From Pseudomonadota bacterium (GTDB lineage: Bacteria > Pseudomonadota > Alphaproteobacteria > Rhizobiales > CAJQND01): 31,427 nucleotides of DNA. The DNA is taken from positions 1 to 31,427 of the forward strand of contig JBCDIP010000001.1 of NCBI GenBank assembly GCA_038748855.1, given 5' to 3'. Position numbers and translations under genes: made by a program. Positions 2,822 through 20,786 of the stretch are shown one piece after another (position 1 is the first letter of the stretch; each line of letters opens with the position of its first letter). The notes beneath the pieces are model-generated. The model did not search any database and was not told the DNA's origin. It saw only the letters and a list, made by a program, of their open reading frames with translations.

Positions 2822-3961
2822 TCAGGCGGCCATAAAGATCTCTACGAACTCTCTTCGCATAGCGGCATACCACGGCGGTTCTGCCGGCCAGGTGTTGAGA
2901 TTGCTCAGAGCATCCCCGGGATAAGCCTCCCCAAAGTTCTTTGTGTAGGCCTCACCTGCATATTTGTCGGCGCCCCTGACCGGAGAGTTGTATCCGTGGA
3001 TCCGGATCGCCTGGCCCGCATTCTGTGGGGTGTAAGCGAACTCCAGGAACGCATAGATCTGGTCGATATTCTTCGCGCGCGCGGAGACCGCGATACCATC
3101 CACCCAGGTCAGGGCGCCTTCCTTGGGCGCTTGATACATCACCGGCGCGCCTGTGTTCTTCAAAGCCAAGGGCGGCCCGTCCCAGGTTTGCCCAAGGGCC
3201 ACCTCGCCGGTGAGGAGGGCCGTCTTTTGAGTTTCCGCATTGTCCCAAAGCACCTTCACGGTTTGTTTGCGCTCAACGCACCATTTGGTGATTTGCTCCC
3301 AAACCGGCTTCATTTTTTCCGGGCTCTCATAGGCAGCCCACACCGCGCCAGGCTCCAGCTCGCCGGCCGATTGAAGGTAGAGACCTGCGCCCAGCATCAT
3401 CGAGTGGGCCCGGCCCATGGTTTGTCCGGCATTCTCTGGCGCCCAGACATCGCCATAGGAAGGAACCGTGTCTTTGGGTGTCCACTTGTCCGTGCGCCAG
3501 GCGATCCCTTCTGTGCCCCACAGATATGGCAGCCAATGGGCGCCCTTATCGTCAAAGTTCCACCCGCTTGATCCGATTTTGGCCATGCCCGGGTTGAGGG
3601 CGTCCATGGACACGCGCGTCAGATCAAACGGCTGCAACAGCCCGAGCTTGGCCCATTGCAGATTGCGGTGGCTTGTGGGGGAGGCAAGATCATAGCCGTC
3701 CCCGCCGCTGGCTTGCATCTTTTGAAGCAACCCCTCGTTTGAGCCAATGGGTGTGTGGTTGACCTTGATGCCCGTCTGATCCTGAAAAGCACTCAGGAAA
3801 CTTCTTGGAAGATAGTCAGACCACATGAGGATGTTGAGCTCGCCCGAGGAGGAGCGTGCCTGGCTCACCAGAGCGGGAGCCGCAAGAGCGCCCAGCGCTG
3901 CAGCCGAAGAGGATCTCAAGAGTTTTCGCCGGGAAACACGGGGTAAGACGGGTCTTGTCAT
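2822..3961 (-). CDS. Polyamine/opine-type (PotD/PotF-like) ABC transporter substrate-binding protein with twin-arginine signal peptide
   Basis: SRRKLL Tat motif followed by a hydrophobic stretch and AxA site; ELNILMWSDY, LPYLWGTEGIAW, GQTWDG and PKEGALTW motifs typical of this SBP family. Start placed at ATG 3961 rather than 4012. Confidence 0.85.
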   Translation of the reverse strand: MTRPVLPRVSRRKLLRSSSAAALGALAAPALVSQARSSSGELNILMWSDYLPRSFLSAFQDQTGIKVNHTPIGSNEGLLQKMQASGGDGYDLASPTSHRNLQWAKLGLLQPFDLTRVSMDALNPGMAKIGSSGWNFDDKGAHWLPYLWGTEGIAWRTDKWTPKDTVPSYGDVWAPENAGQTMGRAHSMMLGAGLYLQSAGELEPGAVWAAYESPEKMKPVWEQITKWCVERKQTVKVLWDNAETQKTALLTGEVALGQTWDGPPLALKNTGAPVMYQAPKEGALTWVDGIAVSARAKNIDQIYAFLEFAYTPQNAGQAIRIHGYNSPVRGADKYAGEAYTKNFGEAYPGDALSNLNTWPAEPPWYAAMRREFVEIFMAA

Positions 3962-4268
3962 AATCGGCCTGTTGTGACGGATGTGGTGCCTGCCGCGTGA
4001 GCGGGTGCGCACGGCTTAATAGGACGGTGAAGAAACAAAGGGTAGGGCCAGTCCATCACAAATTTGCCGCAGGGGCCGCCAAGCCGTCCGTCCCGAGATC
4101 AGAGACAATCGGAGGTGAAATACACCAAATAGTGGCAAAAGTTTGCCAGCGCTAACTTTCTGTGGTAAAGGAAAGGTTAGATCGAGACTCCCACCCACCG
4201 GGGGATCATAAAGGCAGGAGCCTCGACCGTTTCCCGGAAATCCGGGAACCTGCATGTCTCTAAAAGAC

Positions 4269-4287
4269 TGTCAAGTTATGCTTGACA
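4269..4287. promoter_or_regulatory. Inverted repeat TGTCAAG-N5-CTTGACA (candidate operator and/or back-to-back -35 hexamers)
   Basis: Perfect 7-bp inverted repeat giving TTGACA on both strands, in a divergent intergenic region. No convincing -10 found at 17 bp. Confidence 0.3.
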
Positions 4288-4410
4288 ACTACGCTATGTC
4301 GTCGTCAATGTCAATGCAGTGTGCGCAAATTTTCCCTCTATTGCAATTCCCTATTTTTCATTGATATGCGAAATCTTTTTCTTGCATTTGATTGACTAGC
4401 AATACGGTAC

Positions 4411-4428
4411 TGGTACAAAAATGTACCA
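4411..4428. promoter_or_regulatory. Palindrome TGGTACA-N4-TGTACCA, resembling GntR/FadR-subfamily operators
   Basis: Perfect 7-bp inverted repeat in AT-rich divergent DNA. Fits the TnGT-Nn-ACnA pattern known for FadR-type regulators. Confidence 0.35.
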
Positions 4429-4782
4429 TTAAAATTCCTCAGATTTTGCGAAGAATTGAGCGGCCAGTGTTTGGTTAATAGTCTATTTTTAAAAGGAAAA
4501 TTTTGTGTTTCACAAATTTTCCCCACAACAAGGACACCAAAGGTTCCAGCAGACGAGAACGTCAACTGTCGCACGATCTACGCCATTCCAGGGTCTCAAA
4601 AAATCAGAACTTTTTGACATTCAAAACCATAGGTGCTCACGGGGTTGTGCGTGAATTGTCACGCAGGTCAGTAAAGCGTTACTGCCGCTGAAAGCGTTCA
4701 GCTGAAAACGCCACATGAGGCTTTTCCTTGCTGAAAAGATCAGCTAGGCAGACCCTATGAAATCCCAGGGGTTAAAGGCATC

Positions 4783-5745
4783 ATGACCAGCAGCAGCGTA
4801 TCTTCTGAACAGTCGTCTACGAAAACGGTTCCCCTCCAGGCCCGGCGCGAAGGCGGGGGCACGCCGCTCATGGAGAAGTGGTCCCTAACCTCAGAGGCAG
4901 GGCGACTGACCGATGTATTGTTAGGACCCGCGGAAGGGTTCCGCTGGATGGGCCTTGAGAACGCGGCCTATAGCTCCTTGGTGCGTGATACCATCCGCCG
5001 TGGATATGCTTTCGATAAGCAGGTGGCCATGCGTCAGCACCGAGAGATGGTGGACGCCTATGGGGATGCCGGAGTCACCTGCCATTTCCTGCCGCTGGAT
5101 GAGGAAAATCCCTATCAAGTGTATGCCCGCGATTCCAGTTTCATGACCGAGCATGGCGCCGTGATCTGCCAATTGGCCAATCCTCGGCGCCGCGGCGAAT
5201 ATGCGTCCGTTCTCAGATTCTATTTGGTCAACGATATTCCGATCTATGACATGGTCAGCGCCGGCAATTTTGAAGGGGGCGATTTCAACATCATCGGCGA
5301 GAAGTGCGCCCTCATCGGTTACACCGACCACCGCAGCGAAGAAGTTGCCGCCAGGCAGATCGGTGACTGGTTCGTGGCCGAGGGCTGGGAAATCATGTAC
5401 GCGCCAATTGATCAGTTTTACGTGCACATTGATCTCATGGTCTGCATGTTGAACGCTGAATGCGCGGCCGTTTGCTTGGACACCACCGATGCGGAGATCG
5501 TCGACTGGCTCAAGGCCAAGAAGATCGAAATCATCCCGGCCAGCTTCAAGGAAACCATGGCGCTGGGGTGCAACGTAGTTGCGCTGGGCCAAGACCGTGT
5601 CCTGTCCACTCACGGTGCAGTTGAGCTCAACGCAAACATGCGCGCTGCGGGATTTAAAGTCTACGATCCGGACATGAGCATGTTTACCCGCGCTGGTGGC
5701 GGCGTTCATTGCATGTGCCAGCCTCTCAACCGGGAAGCAGCTTGA
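4783..5745 (+). CDS. Amidinotransferase superfamily enzyme, arginine deiminase/dimethylargininase (DDAH)-like
   Basis: SEAGRLTDVLL, YARD, RRGE, FEGGD, HID, GCNVVAL and GGGVHCMCQPL motifs; Asp/His/Cys catalytic residues present. Alternative start at ATG 4870. Confidence 0.88.
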   Translation: MTSSSVSSEQSSTKTVPLQARREGGGTPLMEKWSLTSEAGRLTDVLLGPAEGFRWMGLENAAYSSLVRDTIRRGYAFDKQVAMRQHREMVDAYGDAGVTCHFLPLDEENPYQVYARDSSFMTEHGAVICQLANPRRRGEYASVLRFYLVNDIPIYDMVSAGNFEGGDFNIIGEKCALIGYTDHRSEEVAARQIGDWFVAEGWEIMYAPIDQFYVHIDLMVCMLNAECAAVCLDTTDAEIVDWLKAKKIEIIPASFKETMALGCNVVALGQDRVLSTHGAVELNANMRAAGFKVYDPDMSMFTRAGGGVHCMCQPLNREAA

Positions 5746-5801
5746 TCAAATTTCATTCAAATTGCGCCTATTGAGTGTAAACCATAAAATATGCACGCAA
5801 A

Positions 5802-5830
5802 TTGACGCATCATGGCGTTCCTGTTAGGGT
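5802..5830 (+). promoter_or_regulatory. Putative sigma70 promoter TTGACG-N17-TAGGGT for the second amidinotransferase
   Basis: -35 TTGACG at 5802-5807, 17-nt spacer, TAnnnT at 5825-5830, preceded by AT-rich DNA. Confidence 0.45.
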
Positions 5831-5849
5831 TGTAGCTAAGAAGAGTTCA

Positions 5850-6005
5850 GCTCGACTGCCGGGGGGTCGGAAGAGACTGGAGTGCATCCGGTTCTTGGTC
5901 ACCTGGCGAGGCGCCGGAAGTATTCCAGTCTCTGAAATCCAAACAGCCATCCCAATCCTTTTAGAGAAACGGTGACGCTAAGGTTCTGCTCGGCTAAGGT
6001 CGAGC
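5850..6005 (+). ncRNA. Candidate structured 5' leader (cis-regulatory RNA) of the 6007 gene; family not recognised
   Basis: Near-continuous ~25-bp hairpin at 5872-5933 with five G-U pairs valid only on the + strand; small hairpin at 5852-5870; hairpin at 5988-6005 directly before the ATG. Confidence 0.45.
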
Positions 6006-6006
6006 C

Positions 6007-6990
6007 ATGAGCGAGCAATCACACATCAATGTTGTTTCTGAGTGGGCCGAGTTACGCGAATGCGTTTACGGTTCACCGGACTACTGGGTCCTGCCGGTCT
6101 TTCTGGGCGATGCCAAGTTGCGCGCCCAAGGGCCTTTTACGCAATACTGGATCGACAATCAGGGCGCCGATATCAAACAGACCGATCCGGATCTGTTTGC
6201 CGAGTTCCACGATCAGATCGAGGGCGCGATCAAGCTTCTGGAAAGCCTCGGCGTGAAGGTCCATGTGGCCGGTCCGCTGAGCGCCGACAACCGGAACTAC
6301 CCCCGCGGCGAGGATCACGGTGTGGAGACCGGCTGGATGCGCGATCCGTTCGTGACCATCGGCAACAATGTGATTGAGCTCGCACCGCGCACCTTGTTCC
6401 ACCGGCGTCAACGCTTCGCCATCCGCGAGATCCTGGCCGGCACCATGGAGCGCGGTGCGCGCTACTTCTCCCAGCCCGATGGCGGGGCAGACGACAGTGC
6501 CGAAGGGCCCGGATGGGGCTACTTGGAGGGCGGGGACATCTTCGTGCTCGGCTCCAATATCTTTGTTGGTCACTCTGGCGGTTGCTCCAATCCGGAGGGT
6601 GCGCGCTGGCTTCAGCATGCCTTGGGTGCGGACTACACGGTGGAGATGGTGCGCGTGGATCCCATGTTCCCGCACTTGGACTGTGTGCTGATGACACCGC
6701 GCGAAGGGGTCGCGGTCGCGTGCCTGGAGGCGCTGCCCGATGGGCTGCCGGATCATATGAAGGACTGGGACGTGGTGGACGTGCCCAAGACGTTGGCCAA
6801 GGGACATATGGGCTGCAACAACTTGGTGCTGAACGACCGAACGGTGGTGGTCCCCTCAGAGGAGCCCCTCAACCCTATCGTTGAGGCGCTGGAGGCGCAC
6901 AAGTTCGAAGTGATCCGCATCCCCTATAGGGTGCCGTGCATGGTGGGCGGCTCGTTCCGCTGCGCCCACCAGCCGCTCATCCGCGTTTAG
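6007..6990 (+). CDS. Amidinotransferase superfamily enzyme, glycine/inosamine-phosphate amidinotransferase-like
   Basis: N-terminal VVSEWAELRECVYG (compare xxEWDPLEEVIVG); RDP, LEGGD, HLDC, GCNNLVL and GGSFRCAHQPL motifs with catalytic Asp/His/Cys. Confidence 0.85.
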   Translation: MSEQSHINVVSEWAELRECVYGSPDYWVLPVFLGDAKLRAQGPFTQYWIDNQGADIKQTDPDLFAEFHDQIEGAIKLLESLGVKVHVAGPLSADNRNYPRGEDHGVETGWMRDPFVTIGNNVIELAPRTLFHRRQRFAIREILAGTMERGARYFSQPDGGADDSAEGPGWGYLEGGDIFVLGSNIFVGHSGGCSNPEGARWLQHALGADYTVEMVRVDPMFPHLDCVLMTPREGVAVACLEALPDGLPDHMKDWDVVDVPKTLAKGHMGCNNLVLNDRTVVVPSEEPLNPIVEALEAHKFEVIRIPYRVPCMVGGSFRCAHQPLIRV

Positions 6991-8375
6991 GCCAATTGCG
7001 GCCAGCCGATCCCGCCGAAGTCGTCTTCAAACGCCTTGCCGATGCGAAGCGCTGTTGTCTCATGGCGGCCCGGCGCCATGATCTGCAGGCTCATCGGCAG
7101 ACCGTTTCCTGCAATGCCCATGGGCTGGGCGAGGGCGCAGAACCCCAGATAGTTCGCCATCCGCGTCAGTTGTGAAGGCGCCGAATCCTGATCGATCTCG
7201 GCCACAACCGGCGCCGTGATGGGCGTGGTGGGCGAAACGATGGCGGCCATTCCGCGCATGGCCTTCAAGAACTCTTGCCGCACTTCGAGCCGTTCTTGAA
7301 GCGCGCCGATATATTCATTCGCCGTCACAGCCTTGCCGGCCATGATCCGCTTCTCAATATCGCTGTCCATGAGGTTGGCGGGATCCTCATAGGTTGCGCC
7401 ATGGTGATAGTAGCCCTCCGAACCGATCAGTGTGGCGACCGCCCAGCGCATATGGTCGATAGAGCGGGGCAGGGTGAGCTCCACAATCTCGGCCCCAAGG
7501 CTCTCAAGGCGCCCCAGAGCGTCACCATAGCTCTCGCGCACCTCAGGGTCGAGAAACTCCCGGTCGGCCTGGGTGAGCACTCCAAGCGTGAGCCCGGCAA
7601 TGCCTTCGGTCATGGCGCCGAACACGCCCTGTGACGTTGTGAGATCATGGTCGATCTTTCCGGGTTCCGCACCATCCATGGTCACATACATAATGGCCGC
7701 ATCCACAACCGAGCGGCACATGGGCCCGGGTGTGTCGAGGGTATGGGACAACGGCAAGATCCCCTCAAGGGGCAGGCGTCCTTCGGTCACTTTCAGCCCC
7801 GTCAGGCCGCAAAAAGCTGAGGGGATCCGCACTGACCCGCCCGTATCGGTACCCACGGCGCACGCCGTCAGGCCGGCAGAGGTCGCCGCGCCGGAGCCGC
7901 TGGACGAGCCTCCGGGCGCGCGGTGCGTGTCCGCGTCCCAGGGGTTCCACGGGGTTCCACGTTGTTGGTTGGTACCCCAGGGGCCATAGGCCACCTCCAC
8001 TGTCTTGGTTTTGCCGATGAGCACACCGCCGCCGGCAATGAGGCGCTTGGCTATGGTGGCTGAGGAGGAGGCCACGCGGTCGGCATAAGCGTTGCTGCCT
8101 CCAGTGGTCACGTGGCCCTCCACATCAATCAGATCTTTCAGCGCAAACGGGATGCCGTGGAACGGCCCGATCCGGTGGCCCGCCGCAATGGCACGTGTTG
8201 CAGCCTCGGCGGCCTCTAGCGCTGCATCCTTCAGCACGATCTCAAAGGCCTGTATCTTCGGCTCCAACCGCTCGATCTGGCTGAGGCATGCCGCCACGGC
8301 CTCGCTGGGGGTGTGGGCGCCGCTCTTATAGTCCGCCGCCAGATCGGCAATGCCGCGTTTGTGGAGTTCGGTCAC
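6987..8375 (-). CDS. Amidase-signature family amidase (GatA/AtzE-like)
   Basis: FALKDLID (Lys), PGGSSSGS and GTDTGGSVRIP: the Ser-cisSer-Lys triad motifs. Confidence 0.92.
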   Translation of the reverse strand: MTELHKRGIADLAADYKSGAHTPSEAVAACLSQIERLEPKIQAFEIVLKDAALEAAEAATRAIAAGHRIGPFHGIPFALKDLIDVEGHVTTGGSNAYADRVASSSATIAKRLIAGGGVLIGKTKTVEVAYGPWGTNQQRGTPWNPWDADTHRAPGGSSSGSGAATSAGLTACAVGTDTGGSVRIPSAFCGLTGLKVTEGRLPLEGILPLSHTLDTPGPMCRSVVDAAIMYVTMDGAEPGKIDHDLTTSQGVFGAMTEGIAGLTLGVLTQADREFLDPEVRESYGDALGRLESLGAEIVELTLPRSIDHMRWAVATLIGSEGYYHHGATYEDPANLMDSDIEKRIMAGKAVTANEYIGALQERLEVRQEFLKAMRGMAAIVSPTTPITAPVVAEIDQDSAPSQLTRMANYLGFCALAQPMGIAGNGLPMSLQIMAPGRHETTALRIGKAFEDDFGGIGWPQLA

Positions 8376-9677: not shown

Positions 9678-9768
9678 TCATCGTCATCCCCACGCAGGCG
9701 GGGATCCGGGTTGCCACCCGCAGAGATCTCGGCCTATGGATGCCCGCTTACGCGGGCATGACGGATGA
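9678..9768. repeat. REP family A doublet (GTCATSCCCGCGNANGCGGGSATCCA-type units, inverted pair)
   Basis: cgtcatccccacgcaggcggggatcc ... ggatgcccgcttacgcgggcatgacg. Similar units occur at 17083, 19299 and 20671. Confidence 0.8.
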
Positions 9769-9770
9769 TC

Positions 9771-9850
9771 CCGCGCCCTTGCGAACGCGAGGGCCCATAG
9801 CTCTCCCCGGTCCCTTGGCTGAGAAGGTCCTCGCTTTCGCAAGGACGCGG
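9771..9850 (+). repeat. 80-bp REP family B doublet (REPIN-like), copy 1
   Basis: CCGCGCCCTTGCG...CGCAAGGACGCGG termini with conserved core ATAGCT...CCCTTGGCTSAGAA; four copies in the window. Confidence 0.85.
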
Positions 9851-13471: not shown

Positions 13472-13551
13472 CTGCGCCCTTGCGTACGCGAGGGCCCATA
13501 GCTCGCACCTTACCCTTGGCTCAGAAGGTCCCTGCTTTCGCAGGGATGCGG
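13472..13551 (+). repeat. 80-bp REP family B doublet, copy 2
   Basis: Aligns end to end with 9771-9850; lies between convergent genes. Confidence 0.85.
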
Positions 13552-13563
13552 ACAGGTGCAGCG

Positions 13564-16817: not shown

Positions 16818-16927
16818 GAGGTGAGTGTGCCCTTAGAAGACAAGCGAGTAGAGGCGAGCTTATCGCCGCGCAACCGCAGCGGGCAAGCGCTTTGTCTTTG
16901 GGGCGTAAGTGAGCGGAAGAGCGAAAC

Positions 16928-17007
16928 CCACGCCCCTGCGAAAGCGGGGGCCTTCTGAGCCAAGGGGTCAGTGCCAGCTATGGGCCCTCGCGTGCGCAAG
17001 GGCGCGG
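16928..17007 (-). repeat. 80-bp REP family B doublet, copy 3
   Basis: Reverse complement aligns end to end with copies 1 and 2. Confidence 0.85.
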
Positions 17008-17037: not shown

Positions 17038-17166
17038 TCCGTCACCCCGCCATCGTCCTCCGCCATCTCCGCTTTCCTACTTCGTCATGCCCGCGAAAGC
17101 GGGGACCCAGAGCCGCAACCCCTGGGCCCCGGATACTTTGCTCGCGCATGATTCCAGGGTGATGGA
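17038..17166. repeat. Degenerate REP family A cluster
   Basis: Intact unit cgtcatgcccgcgaaagcggggaccca at 17083-17109, enclosed by the imperfect inverted repeat tccgtcaccc / gggtgatgga. Confidence 0.6.
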
Positions 17167-19211: not shown

Positions 19212-19214
19212 CTC

Positions 19215-19313
19215 CCGCGTCCTTGCGCACGCGAGGACCTTCTGAGCCAAGGGAAAGGTGCGAGCTATGGGCCCTCGCTTTCGCAAGGGCGCGGCGCGCG
19301 CGGGGATGACGGA
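19215..19313 (-). repeat. 80-bp REP family B doublet, copy 4 (19215-19294), plus a half family A unit (19299-19313)
   Basis: Reverse complement aligns with the other B copies; followed by cgcggggatgacgga. Confidence 0.85.
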
Positions 19314-20662: not shown

Positions 20663-20786
20663 TGCTTTATCCGTCATGCCCGCGCAGGCGGGCATCCAGA
20701 GCCTCAAACCTCTGAACGCTGCAGCGATGGATCCCCGCCTTCGCGGGGATGACGAGTAGATGTTCGCGGGCATGACGGATAAAGCA
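20663..20786. repeat. REP family A cluster bounded by a perfect 22-bp inverted repeat
   Basis: tgctttatccgtcatgcccgcg (20663-20684) / cgcgggcatgacggataaagca (20765-20786), with an inner inverted unit tggatccccgccttcgcggggatgacg. Confidence 0.85.

Follow-up and report, generated by a model that had tools for sequence, protein, structure and literature searches.

Known leader RNAs and the locus

Guanidine riboswitches of classes I to IV (Rfam ykkC, mini-ykkC, ykkC-III and mepA) are structured RNAs that lie ahead of genes for guanidino chemistry. A similar arrangement is found in the DNA analysed here, a stretch of 31,427 nucleotides (nt) of an alphaproteobacterial contig (JBCDIP010000001.1, assembly GCA_038748855.1; hereafter the window), in which a long hairpin, P2, precedes P0001, a gene for an amidinotransferase-like enzyme. 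From the letters of this stretch, the original prediction had proposed a leader RNA that acts as a translational switch and possibly senses a guanidino compound. In contrast to guanidine riboswitches, the P2 element has no match in Rfam, consists of one long helix, lacks a conserved expression platform and is confined to a few closely related genomes of one genus. The riboswitch reading was not supported by any test run, and an upstream non-coding RNA followed by the promoter of a leaderless gene would be a simpler account of the conserved blocks.

Several other described systems share single traits with the locus. THF-II (folE motif) and xanthine (NMT1 motif) riboswitches are single hairpins whose stems covary freely and whose conserved nucleotides are those of the internal loops. 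P2 has in common with both classes that it is one hairpin with an internal mismatch in a 5′ region, but, in a comparison made through Rfam only, it differs from them in its nearly invariant 14-bp lower stem and in its sole internal loop, an A/A (or G/A) mismatch. Stabilising or processing hairpins between cistrons are exemplified by RNase III sites and by 3′ stabilisers of the REP/BIME type (repetitive extragenic palindromes). P2 resembles these as a long stable hairpin between co-oriented genes, but in contrast to the REP/BIME type it is single-copy and has its own conserved promoter ahead of it. Small RNAs of the AbcR/alpha-r15 family pair C-rich loops with G-rich targets, and CopA-CopT is a case of antisense RNAs that pair by loop-loop kissing. 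In a similar way, a conserved C-rich loop (4195-4208, − strand) is complementary to a nearby G-tract at 5856-5869, but neither of the two RNAs matches Rfam, their pairing is predicted and the G-tract is not a Shine-Dalgarno (SD) sequence. We know of no described case in which an upstream promoter feeds a conserved structured RNA directly before a leaderless promoter. The leaderless genes of Methylorubrum extorquens combine a canonical −35, a weak TAnnnT-type −10, 6-8 nt to the start and an SD-less ATG at +1 (PMC9320726), which is also the layout ahead of P0001; in contrast to that map, the leaderless start of P0001 is predicted from comparative sequence alone.

A conserved hairpin of the + strand RNA

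A spacer of 261 nt separates the co-oriented genes P0002 and P0001 and contains all of the leader features. These genes and features are:

4783-5745, + strand: P0002, the upstream gene, DDAH/arginine-deiminase-like (Pfam DDAH_eukar and ADI, NCBIfam, DDAH in the PDB)
5774-5786, + strand: A/T-rich box AGTGTAAACCATA, kept in all relatives, just 5′ of the −35 of P-up
5802-5830, + strand: upstream promoter P-up, TTGACG (5802-5807), 17-nt spacer, TAGGGT (5825-5830)
5852-5870, + strand: small 5′ hairpin P1, in which 5852-5857 pairs with 5865-5870
5856-5869, + strand: G-tract block CUGCCGGGGGGUCG, nearly invariant among relatives
5872-5933, + strand: long hairpin P2, with a 14-bp lower stem (5872-5885 with 5920-5933), an A/A mismatch, a 6-bp middle stem and a variable apical stem-loop
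5934-5971, + strand: linker, unalignable between lineages, with both sequence and length varying
5972-6000, + strand: putative promoter P-down, GTGACG (5972-5977), 17-nt spacer, TAAGGT (5995-6000), then 6 nt to the ATG
6007-6990, + strand: P0001, an amidinotransferase-like pentein-fold enzyme, whose nearest solved relatives are HsvA, StrB1, SxtG and AGAT

The long hairpin was found as originally drawn, with 14 bp, a mismatch, 6 bp, a looser tip and five G-U pairs in the source genome. The + strand of 5835-6015 folds at −77.3 kcal/mol (z −4.6), a value that 0 of 200 shuffles matched, whereas the − strand shows no comparable folding (z −1.6). Covariation, a check that the original prediction had itself proposed, was present. 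In an alignment of 11 sequences, 94% of the cells of P2 are standard pairs, against 37-50% with slid partners, and six pairs, apical ones among them, are altered on both sides (e.g., A-U to G-C at 5876/5929, C-G to U-A at 5889/5916 and G-C to U-G at 5891/5914). Seven pairs of the main helix vary on one side, with standard-pair variants that differ by a transition (G-U or its Watson-Crick counterpart), and the G-U pair 5882/5923 is invariant in the 11 sequences. Because the G-U states of P2 would be A-C mismatches on the opposite strand, the structure belongs to the + strand RNA, and the maintenance of pairing through G-U intermediates and compensatory changes leads to the same conclusion. The claim that the structure is specific to the sense RNA was hence borne out by both the folding scores and the G-U pattern.

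Between the source genome and its relatives, identity is 86-100% in the lower stem of P2 and 40-85% in the apical 20 nt, while the four-fold degenerate sites of P0001 reach just 42-67%. The difference between the lower stem and the four-fold sites argues that the helix is under purifying selection. In the main helix, 10 of the 20 pairs never vary; the apical loop and the linker do. By these comparative measures, P2 is a real RNA structure under selection. The small hairpin P1 is weakly supported: 89% of its cells are paired, there are no compensatory changes and the pairing is disrupted in the L029 and L031 lineages. Within the G-tract that overlaps it, CCGGGGGG (5859-5866) is identical in 11 of 11 sequences.

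Two predicted promoters flanking the hairpin

The promoter TTGACG-N17-TAGGGT of the original prediction was present letter for letter, and it is conserved among relatives. Its hexamers are 17 nt apart in 10 of 10 sequences, and the letters of the spacer vary. Across five deep lineages, mean pairwise identity reaches 0.87 in the −35 and 0.73 in the −10, compared with 0.51 in the spacer. The −35 reads TTGAGA in one lineage, the −10 is of the TAnnnT type in all and most relatives carry TGn ahead of it. Two kept hexamers at 16-18 nt with an unconstrained spacer are the signature of a sigma-70-type promoter, and by such comparative criteria P-up is a real one, with transcription predicted to start near 5838, about 35 nt before P2. 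The A/T-rich box upstream of it may be an activator or UP-type site. It is not enriched genome-wide (26 matches at up to 2 mismatches, versus 36 for the reversed control), and the idea of a regulon sharing the box was dropped for lack of this enrichment.

The conserved blocks at the 3′ end of the spacer have the same architecture. All relatives carry RTGACG, a free spacer of 17 nt (18 in one lineage), TAWGST, 6-8 free nt and the ATG. Across the five deep lineages, the −35 and the −10 average 0.90 and 0.83 in pairwise identity and the spacer 0.34, so that here as well two kept hexamers lie 16-18 nt apart around an unconstrained spacer. Since the hexamers are conserved, the spacer is free and the distance to the ATG stays within 6-8 nt, these blocks are read as a promoter, and we infer that P-down is a second promoter with its +1 at or beside the A of the P0001 ATG. 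The start codon itself is fixed by an in-frame TAA 12 nt 5′ of this ATG in the source genome.

P0001 is probably translated from a leaderless mRNA with its own promoter: the ATG stands at the predicted +1 and no SD is found in 7 of the 9 lineage variants. In other genera, the orthologues of P0001 are preceded by SDs of the GGAGG type and extend about 10 residues further at the N-terminus. Genome-wide, the starts of open reading frames show the usual SD peak plus a small surplus of TAnnnT hexamers that end exactly 6 nt ahead of the first ATG in long frames (34 versus about 15), which hints that the source organism has a minority of leaderless genes. In Methylorubrum extorquens, a model of the Hyphomicrobiales, a differential RNA-seq map assigned 7% of the mRNAs to the leaderless class, and the mapped distances from the −10 to the start are 6-8 nt (PMC9320726).

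The riboswitch proposal

The proposed switch had been built on three features around the start codon, namely a 7-bp hairpin at 5988-6005 that holds AAGG, an alternative pairing of 5850-5857 with 5998-6005 and three copies of GCTAAG (5835, 5977 and 5993). All three are present in the source genome and none is conserved among the relatives; they are therefore treated as chance features of one genome. More generally, no pairing between the leader and the start region is conserved across the relatives. What stands of the structured leader is a conserved, strand-specific RNA that follows a promoter and lies ahead of an amidinotransferase-like gene. The translational switch is not supported, as the SD-hiding hairpin and the mutually exclusive folds are not conserved, most relatives have no SD to hide and the promoter-like geometry of P-down puts +1 at the ATG. 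Sensing of a guanidino compound finds no support either, for an element that is a single long helix, occurs once per genome and is missing at P0001 orthologues of 80% identity or less. The conservation sits in the lower stem rather than in loops or junctions, where an aptamer would have it. Neither a kept SD-sequestering pairing nor a U-tract terminator offers an expression platform, and the restriction of the element to loci with P0001 at least 86% identical deprives it of the recurrence of a riboswitch.

No Rfam family matched at the gathering score anywhere in the window, and 5700-6060 gave no match on either strand even at E ≤ 10, in agreement with the original prediction, which could not match the sequence to guanidine classes I-IV or to other known riboswitches. 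The terminator scan of 4500-7200 found no intrinsic terminator. P2 is not followed by a U-tract, its 3′ tails reading GAAAUCC, GUAUUUUG, GACAUUAG and GCGCCUG according to the lineage, while canonical U-tract terminators exist elsewhere in the window. BLAST and covariance-model searches returned no further copy of P2 in the source genome, the assembly of which is 74% complete. A repeat of the REP or MITE (miniature inverted-repeat transposable element) type, which the original prediction had named as a way in which it could fail, was rejected, as the source genome and each relative with the element hold a single copy.

Other candidates were discarded in turn. A leader peptide or upstream-frame attenuator was rejected because no small open reading frame is conserved in the leader, the frames having been read by hand from the alignments. 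A GUG frame within P2 is interrupted by a stop in L030 and is of variable length. An RUG-ACG frame before the ATG encodes no conserved peptide and changes between lineages in both length and frame: it has 3 codons in L030 and is in frame with P0001 in L011 and L031. An integron attC site and a retron RNA were also dropped: a GTTRRRY core is missing, neither a reverse transcriptase nor an integrase is encoded nearby and the element has one copy. Pairing of the conserved UGACG with the G-tract region reaches 4 bp at most and is not conserved, and a long-range helix closing P2 (GCCGG with CCGGC) exists in some lineages only.

Distribution among relatives

Orthologue loci were gathered from genome contigs, from protein clusters and from the contigs of these clusters, and the presence or absence of the motif was scored by sequence match only. 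The close relatives of the source genome are marine metagenome-assembled Alphaproteobacteria or Hyphomicrobiales. The motif occurs in 14 of 14 loci with a P0001 orthologue at least 86% identical (11 distinct sequences) and was not found in 16 loci with orthologues at 61-80% identity. Conservation upstream of orthologues, which the original prediction had made a test, thus holds for the first group and fails for the second. Loci of the second group have another gene upstream, a short spacer and strong SDs. In loci L013 to L028, from other genera, a GCAAGC..GCTTGC-like palindrome was seen about 90-120 nt upstream of the P0001 orthologues and ahead of a strong SD; it is probably an operator of a regulator of the P0001 family.

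By DNA search, the spacer turned up in 3 of 5 congeneric genomes and in 0 of 55 other genomes of the family and order. In one genome of the genus (G005), the P0001 orthologue is 77% identical, lies at another locus 18 nt behind another gene and lacks the motif. In another one (G003, a complete genome), P0001 is lost and about 750 nt of transposase-like debris take its place. The adjoining amidase of G003 matches in three shifted pieces and is probably a pseudogene. With covariance model R2, the element was detected in 4 of the 9 family genomes, each time as a single copy, and a search of 148 further genomes of the order gave no convincing match. Metagenome contigs scanned for the exact pattern yielded a single contig, which was already in the set.

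A second structured RNA and a predicted pairing

A second conserved element lies on the other side of P0002, in the divergent spacer of 770 nt that separates this gene from the binding-protein gene:

4170-4250, − strand: two-hairpin RNA element; the first hairpin has 7 bp, the second 14 bp and a C-rich loop of 17 nt, GAUCCCCCGGUGG

It is part of an ultra-conserved block (about 4163-4400) that stands far above its surroundings. Of the columns in 4163-4290, 90% do not vary among five lineages that are close to saturation at synonymous sites. The block folds on the − strand (z −4.1) and not on the + strand (z −0.8), and the long stem of 4170-4250 is 100% paired, with three pairs altered on both sides among five distinct sequences. 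This RNA matches no Rfam family, and the search of 4000-4800 gave only noise. Covariance model R3 found the element in 6 of 6 genomes of the genus, where it always lies ahead of P0002 in divergent orientation. Two unrelated loci, one beside MerR/PhyH genes and one beside cydA, hold extra copies, and two weak matches were obtained elsewhere in the order. A common origin with the P2 leader was rejected, as the local DNA alignment of the two is not significant (p about 0.2).

The loop and its adjoining arm, UGAUCCCCCGGUGG (4195-4208, − strand), are complementary to the G-tract at 5856-5869 over 14 contiguous nt, with 10 Watson-Crick and 4 G-U pairs. A shuffled leader reaches a 14-nt complementarity in 15 of 5000 trials, for a match that was noticed post hoc, and duplexes of this kind occur genome-wide at 0.0014 per 100 nt. 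Two shorter complementarities, of 10 nt and 9 nt, join the base of P2 to 4256-4270. In leaders of the L031 type, two substitutions beside the G-tract keep the predicted pairing, in a hand alignment and with L031's own partner outside its contigs. Both partners of this pairing are invariant and hence show no covariation. A search for other partners of the G-tract in G003 and G005 gave no enrichment over the control. A private RNA-RNA circuit, in which the G-tract pairs functionally with the C-rich loop and one RNA controls the other, is a rather doubtful prospect on present comparisons. If true, it could control the binding-protein gene and the two guanidino-enzyme genes.

Further small features were seen around the second element. 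Just after it on the − strand, at 4133-4148, is a conserved small hairpin with a U-rich tail, which could be a terminator or attenuator of the 4170-4250 RNA; the binding-protein gene starts about 120 nt further on. At 4411-4428, a perfect palindrome (TGGTACA, 4-nt spacer, TGTACCA) is kept in 4 of 5 lineages and looks like a transcription-factor operator. A conserved 7-bp hairpin is located upstream of P0002, at about 4645-4666.

Genome setting

The binding-protein gene is PotD-like (2822-4012, − strand) and divergent from the P0002/P0001 pair, and an amidase gene (6987-8375, − strand) is convergent with P0001. Intergenic palindromes that resemble REP elements occur in the window in both orientations and form two repeat families, one of about 80 nt and one of about 40 nt:

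9770-9850, 13474-13560, 16927-17007, 19214-19294: palindromic repeat copies
9682-9720, 17083-17121, 20672-20710: also palindromic repeat copies

Two transcription units or one

We favour, with about as much doubt as confidence, the reading that the P2 RNA is a stand-alone or upstream non-coding RNA beside a separately promoted, leaderless P0001. The spacer between P0002 and P0001 would then hold two transcription units. In one of them, the sigma-70-type promoter at 5802-5830 would drive a lineage-specific structured non-coding RNA, of which the functional part would be the first 100 nt or so, comprising a short 5′ tail, the invariant G-tract at 5856-5869 and the 25-bp imperfect hairpin at 5872-5933. 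In the other, the promoter at 5972-6000 would start transcription at or next to the ATG at 6007, so that the P0001 mRNA would be leaderless. Transcripts that come from P-up or from P0002 would carry this ATG internally and without an SD and would be poorly translated, which argues that the P2 RNA is not a translational riboswitch. It would rather act as a small regulatory RNA or as an upstream transcript that has undergone processing, and the stable hairpin would set or protect its 3′ end. Alternatively, it may be a long isoform that is not translated and that acts by way of stability, termination or interference. Several points weigh against these two units. Both start sites, the 3′ end of the RNA and its function are predictions. 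No U-tract follows P2, hence a stand-alone small RNA would have no recognisable terminator. The hexamers of P-down are weak relative to the E. coli consensus, and the promoter scanner made no call there. The sequence constraint on the lower stem exceeds the needs of pairing, for which the two-unit account has no explanation. Finally, one narrow clade supplies all of the evidence, which amounts to few independent events.

The excess constraint on the stem would fit sequence-specific recognition, and it is one of the reasons to consider that the element could be the cis-acting 5′ untranslated region of a long P0001 mRNA made from P-up. In that case, the G-tract and the hairpin would be bound by a trans factor, be it a protein, a small molecule or the C-loop RNA, that alters the stability, processing or Rho termination of the transcript. 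The promoter, the structured RNA and the gene are collinear and invariably found together, no terminator separates the RNA from P0001, the G-tract is complementary to a conserved RNA loop of the same locus and the adjoining genes act on guanidino compounds. These arguments are countered by the freely varying linker, by the putative second promoter at the ATG, by the failure to find conserved SD/anti-SD pairing or any conserved expression platform, and by the form of the element, a single long helix with no conserved loops or junctions, present once per genome, missing upstream of more distant orthologues and matching no Rfam family. We consider such an untranslated region possible and lean away from it. 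As a special case of it, a true metabolite riboswitch is highly unlikely; in this variant, the P2 RNA would be a new, very narrow riboswitch class for a guanidino compound.

Since P0001 appears to own a promoter, P2 could also belong to the transcript of P0002 as an intercistronic 3′-end, processing or stability element, an RNase III-type or exonuclease-blocking hairpin that would uncouple P0002 from P0001. Downstream of the P0002 stop, no stable structure and no terminator come before P2, which lies 127 nt away, and the near-perfect helix of P2, 25 bp in length, is long enough for an RNase III substrate. This is nonetheless unlikely in our judgement, as a conserved promoter and its upstream box lie between the P0002 stop and P2, about 35 nt before the latter, which is hard to explain if the hairpin serves P0002 only. 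In addition, relatives with P0002 but not P0001 have no such hairpin, and the U-tract is missing. The least credible of the explanations places the element at the level of DNA, where it would be an inverted-repeat operator or what is left of a mobile or palindromic repeat. The arms do make up a perfect inverted repeat of 9 bp with about 50 bp between them, the sequence of the stem is highly conserved and other palindromic repeat families are present in the window. However, the element has one copy in the genome and none in the 148 other genomes of the order, its folding is strand-specific, and it has no significant DNA similarity to the 4170-4250 element. Most substitutions also keep RNA pairing through G-U, which lowers the symmetry of the DNA, and one G-U pair is invariant.

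Significance

The very narrow distribution of the element limits its broader importance. What the analysis adds is a structured RNA, well supported and uncatalogued, of uncultured marine bacteria that resemble Hyphomicrobiales. The locus is also a case in which comparative data dismantled a convincing-looking riboswitch, whose apparent expression platform would be the promoter of a leaderless gene. If the predicted pairing with the second RNA is true, the locus would be a compact case of two locally encoded RNAs controlling a cluster for the catabolism of a guanidino compound.

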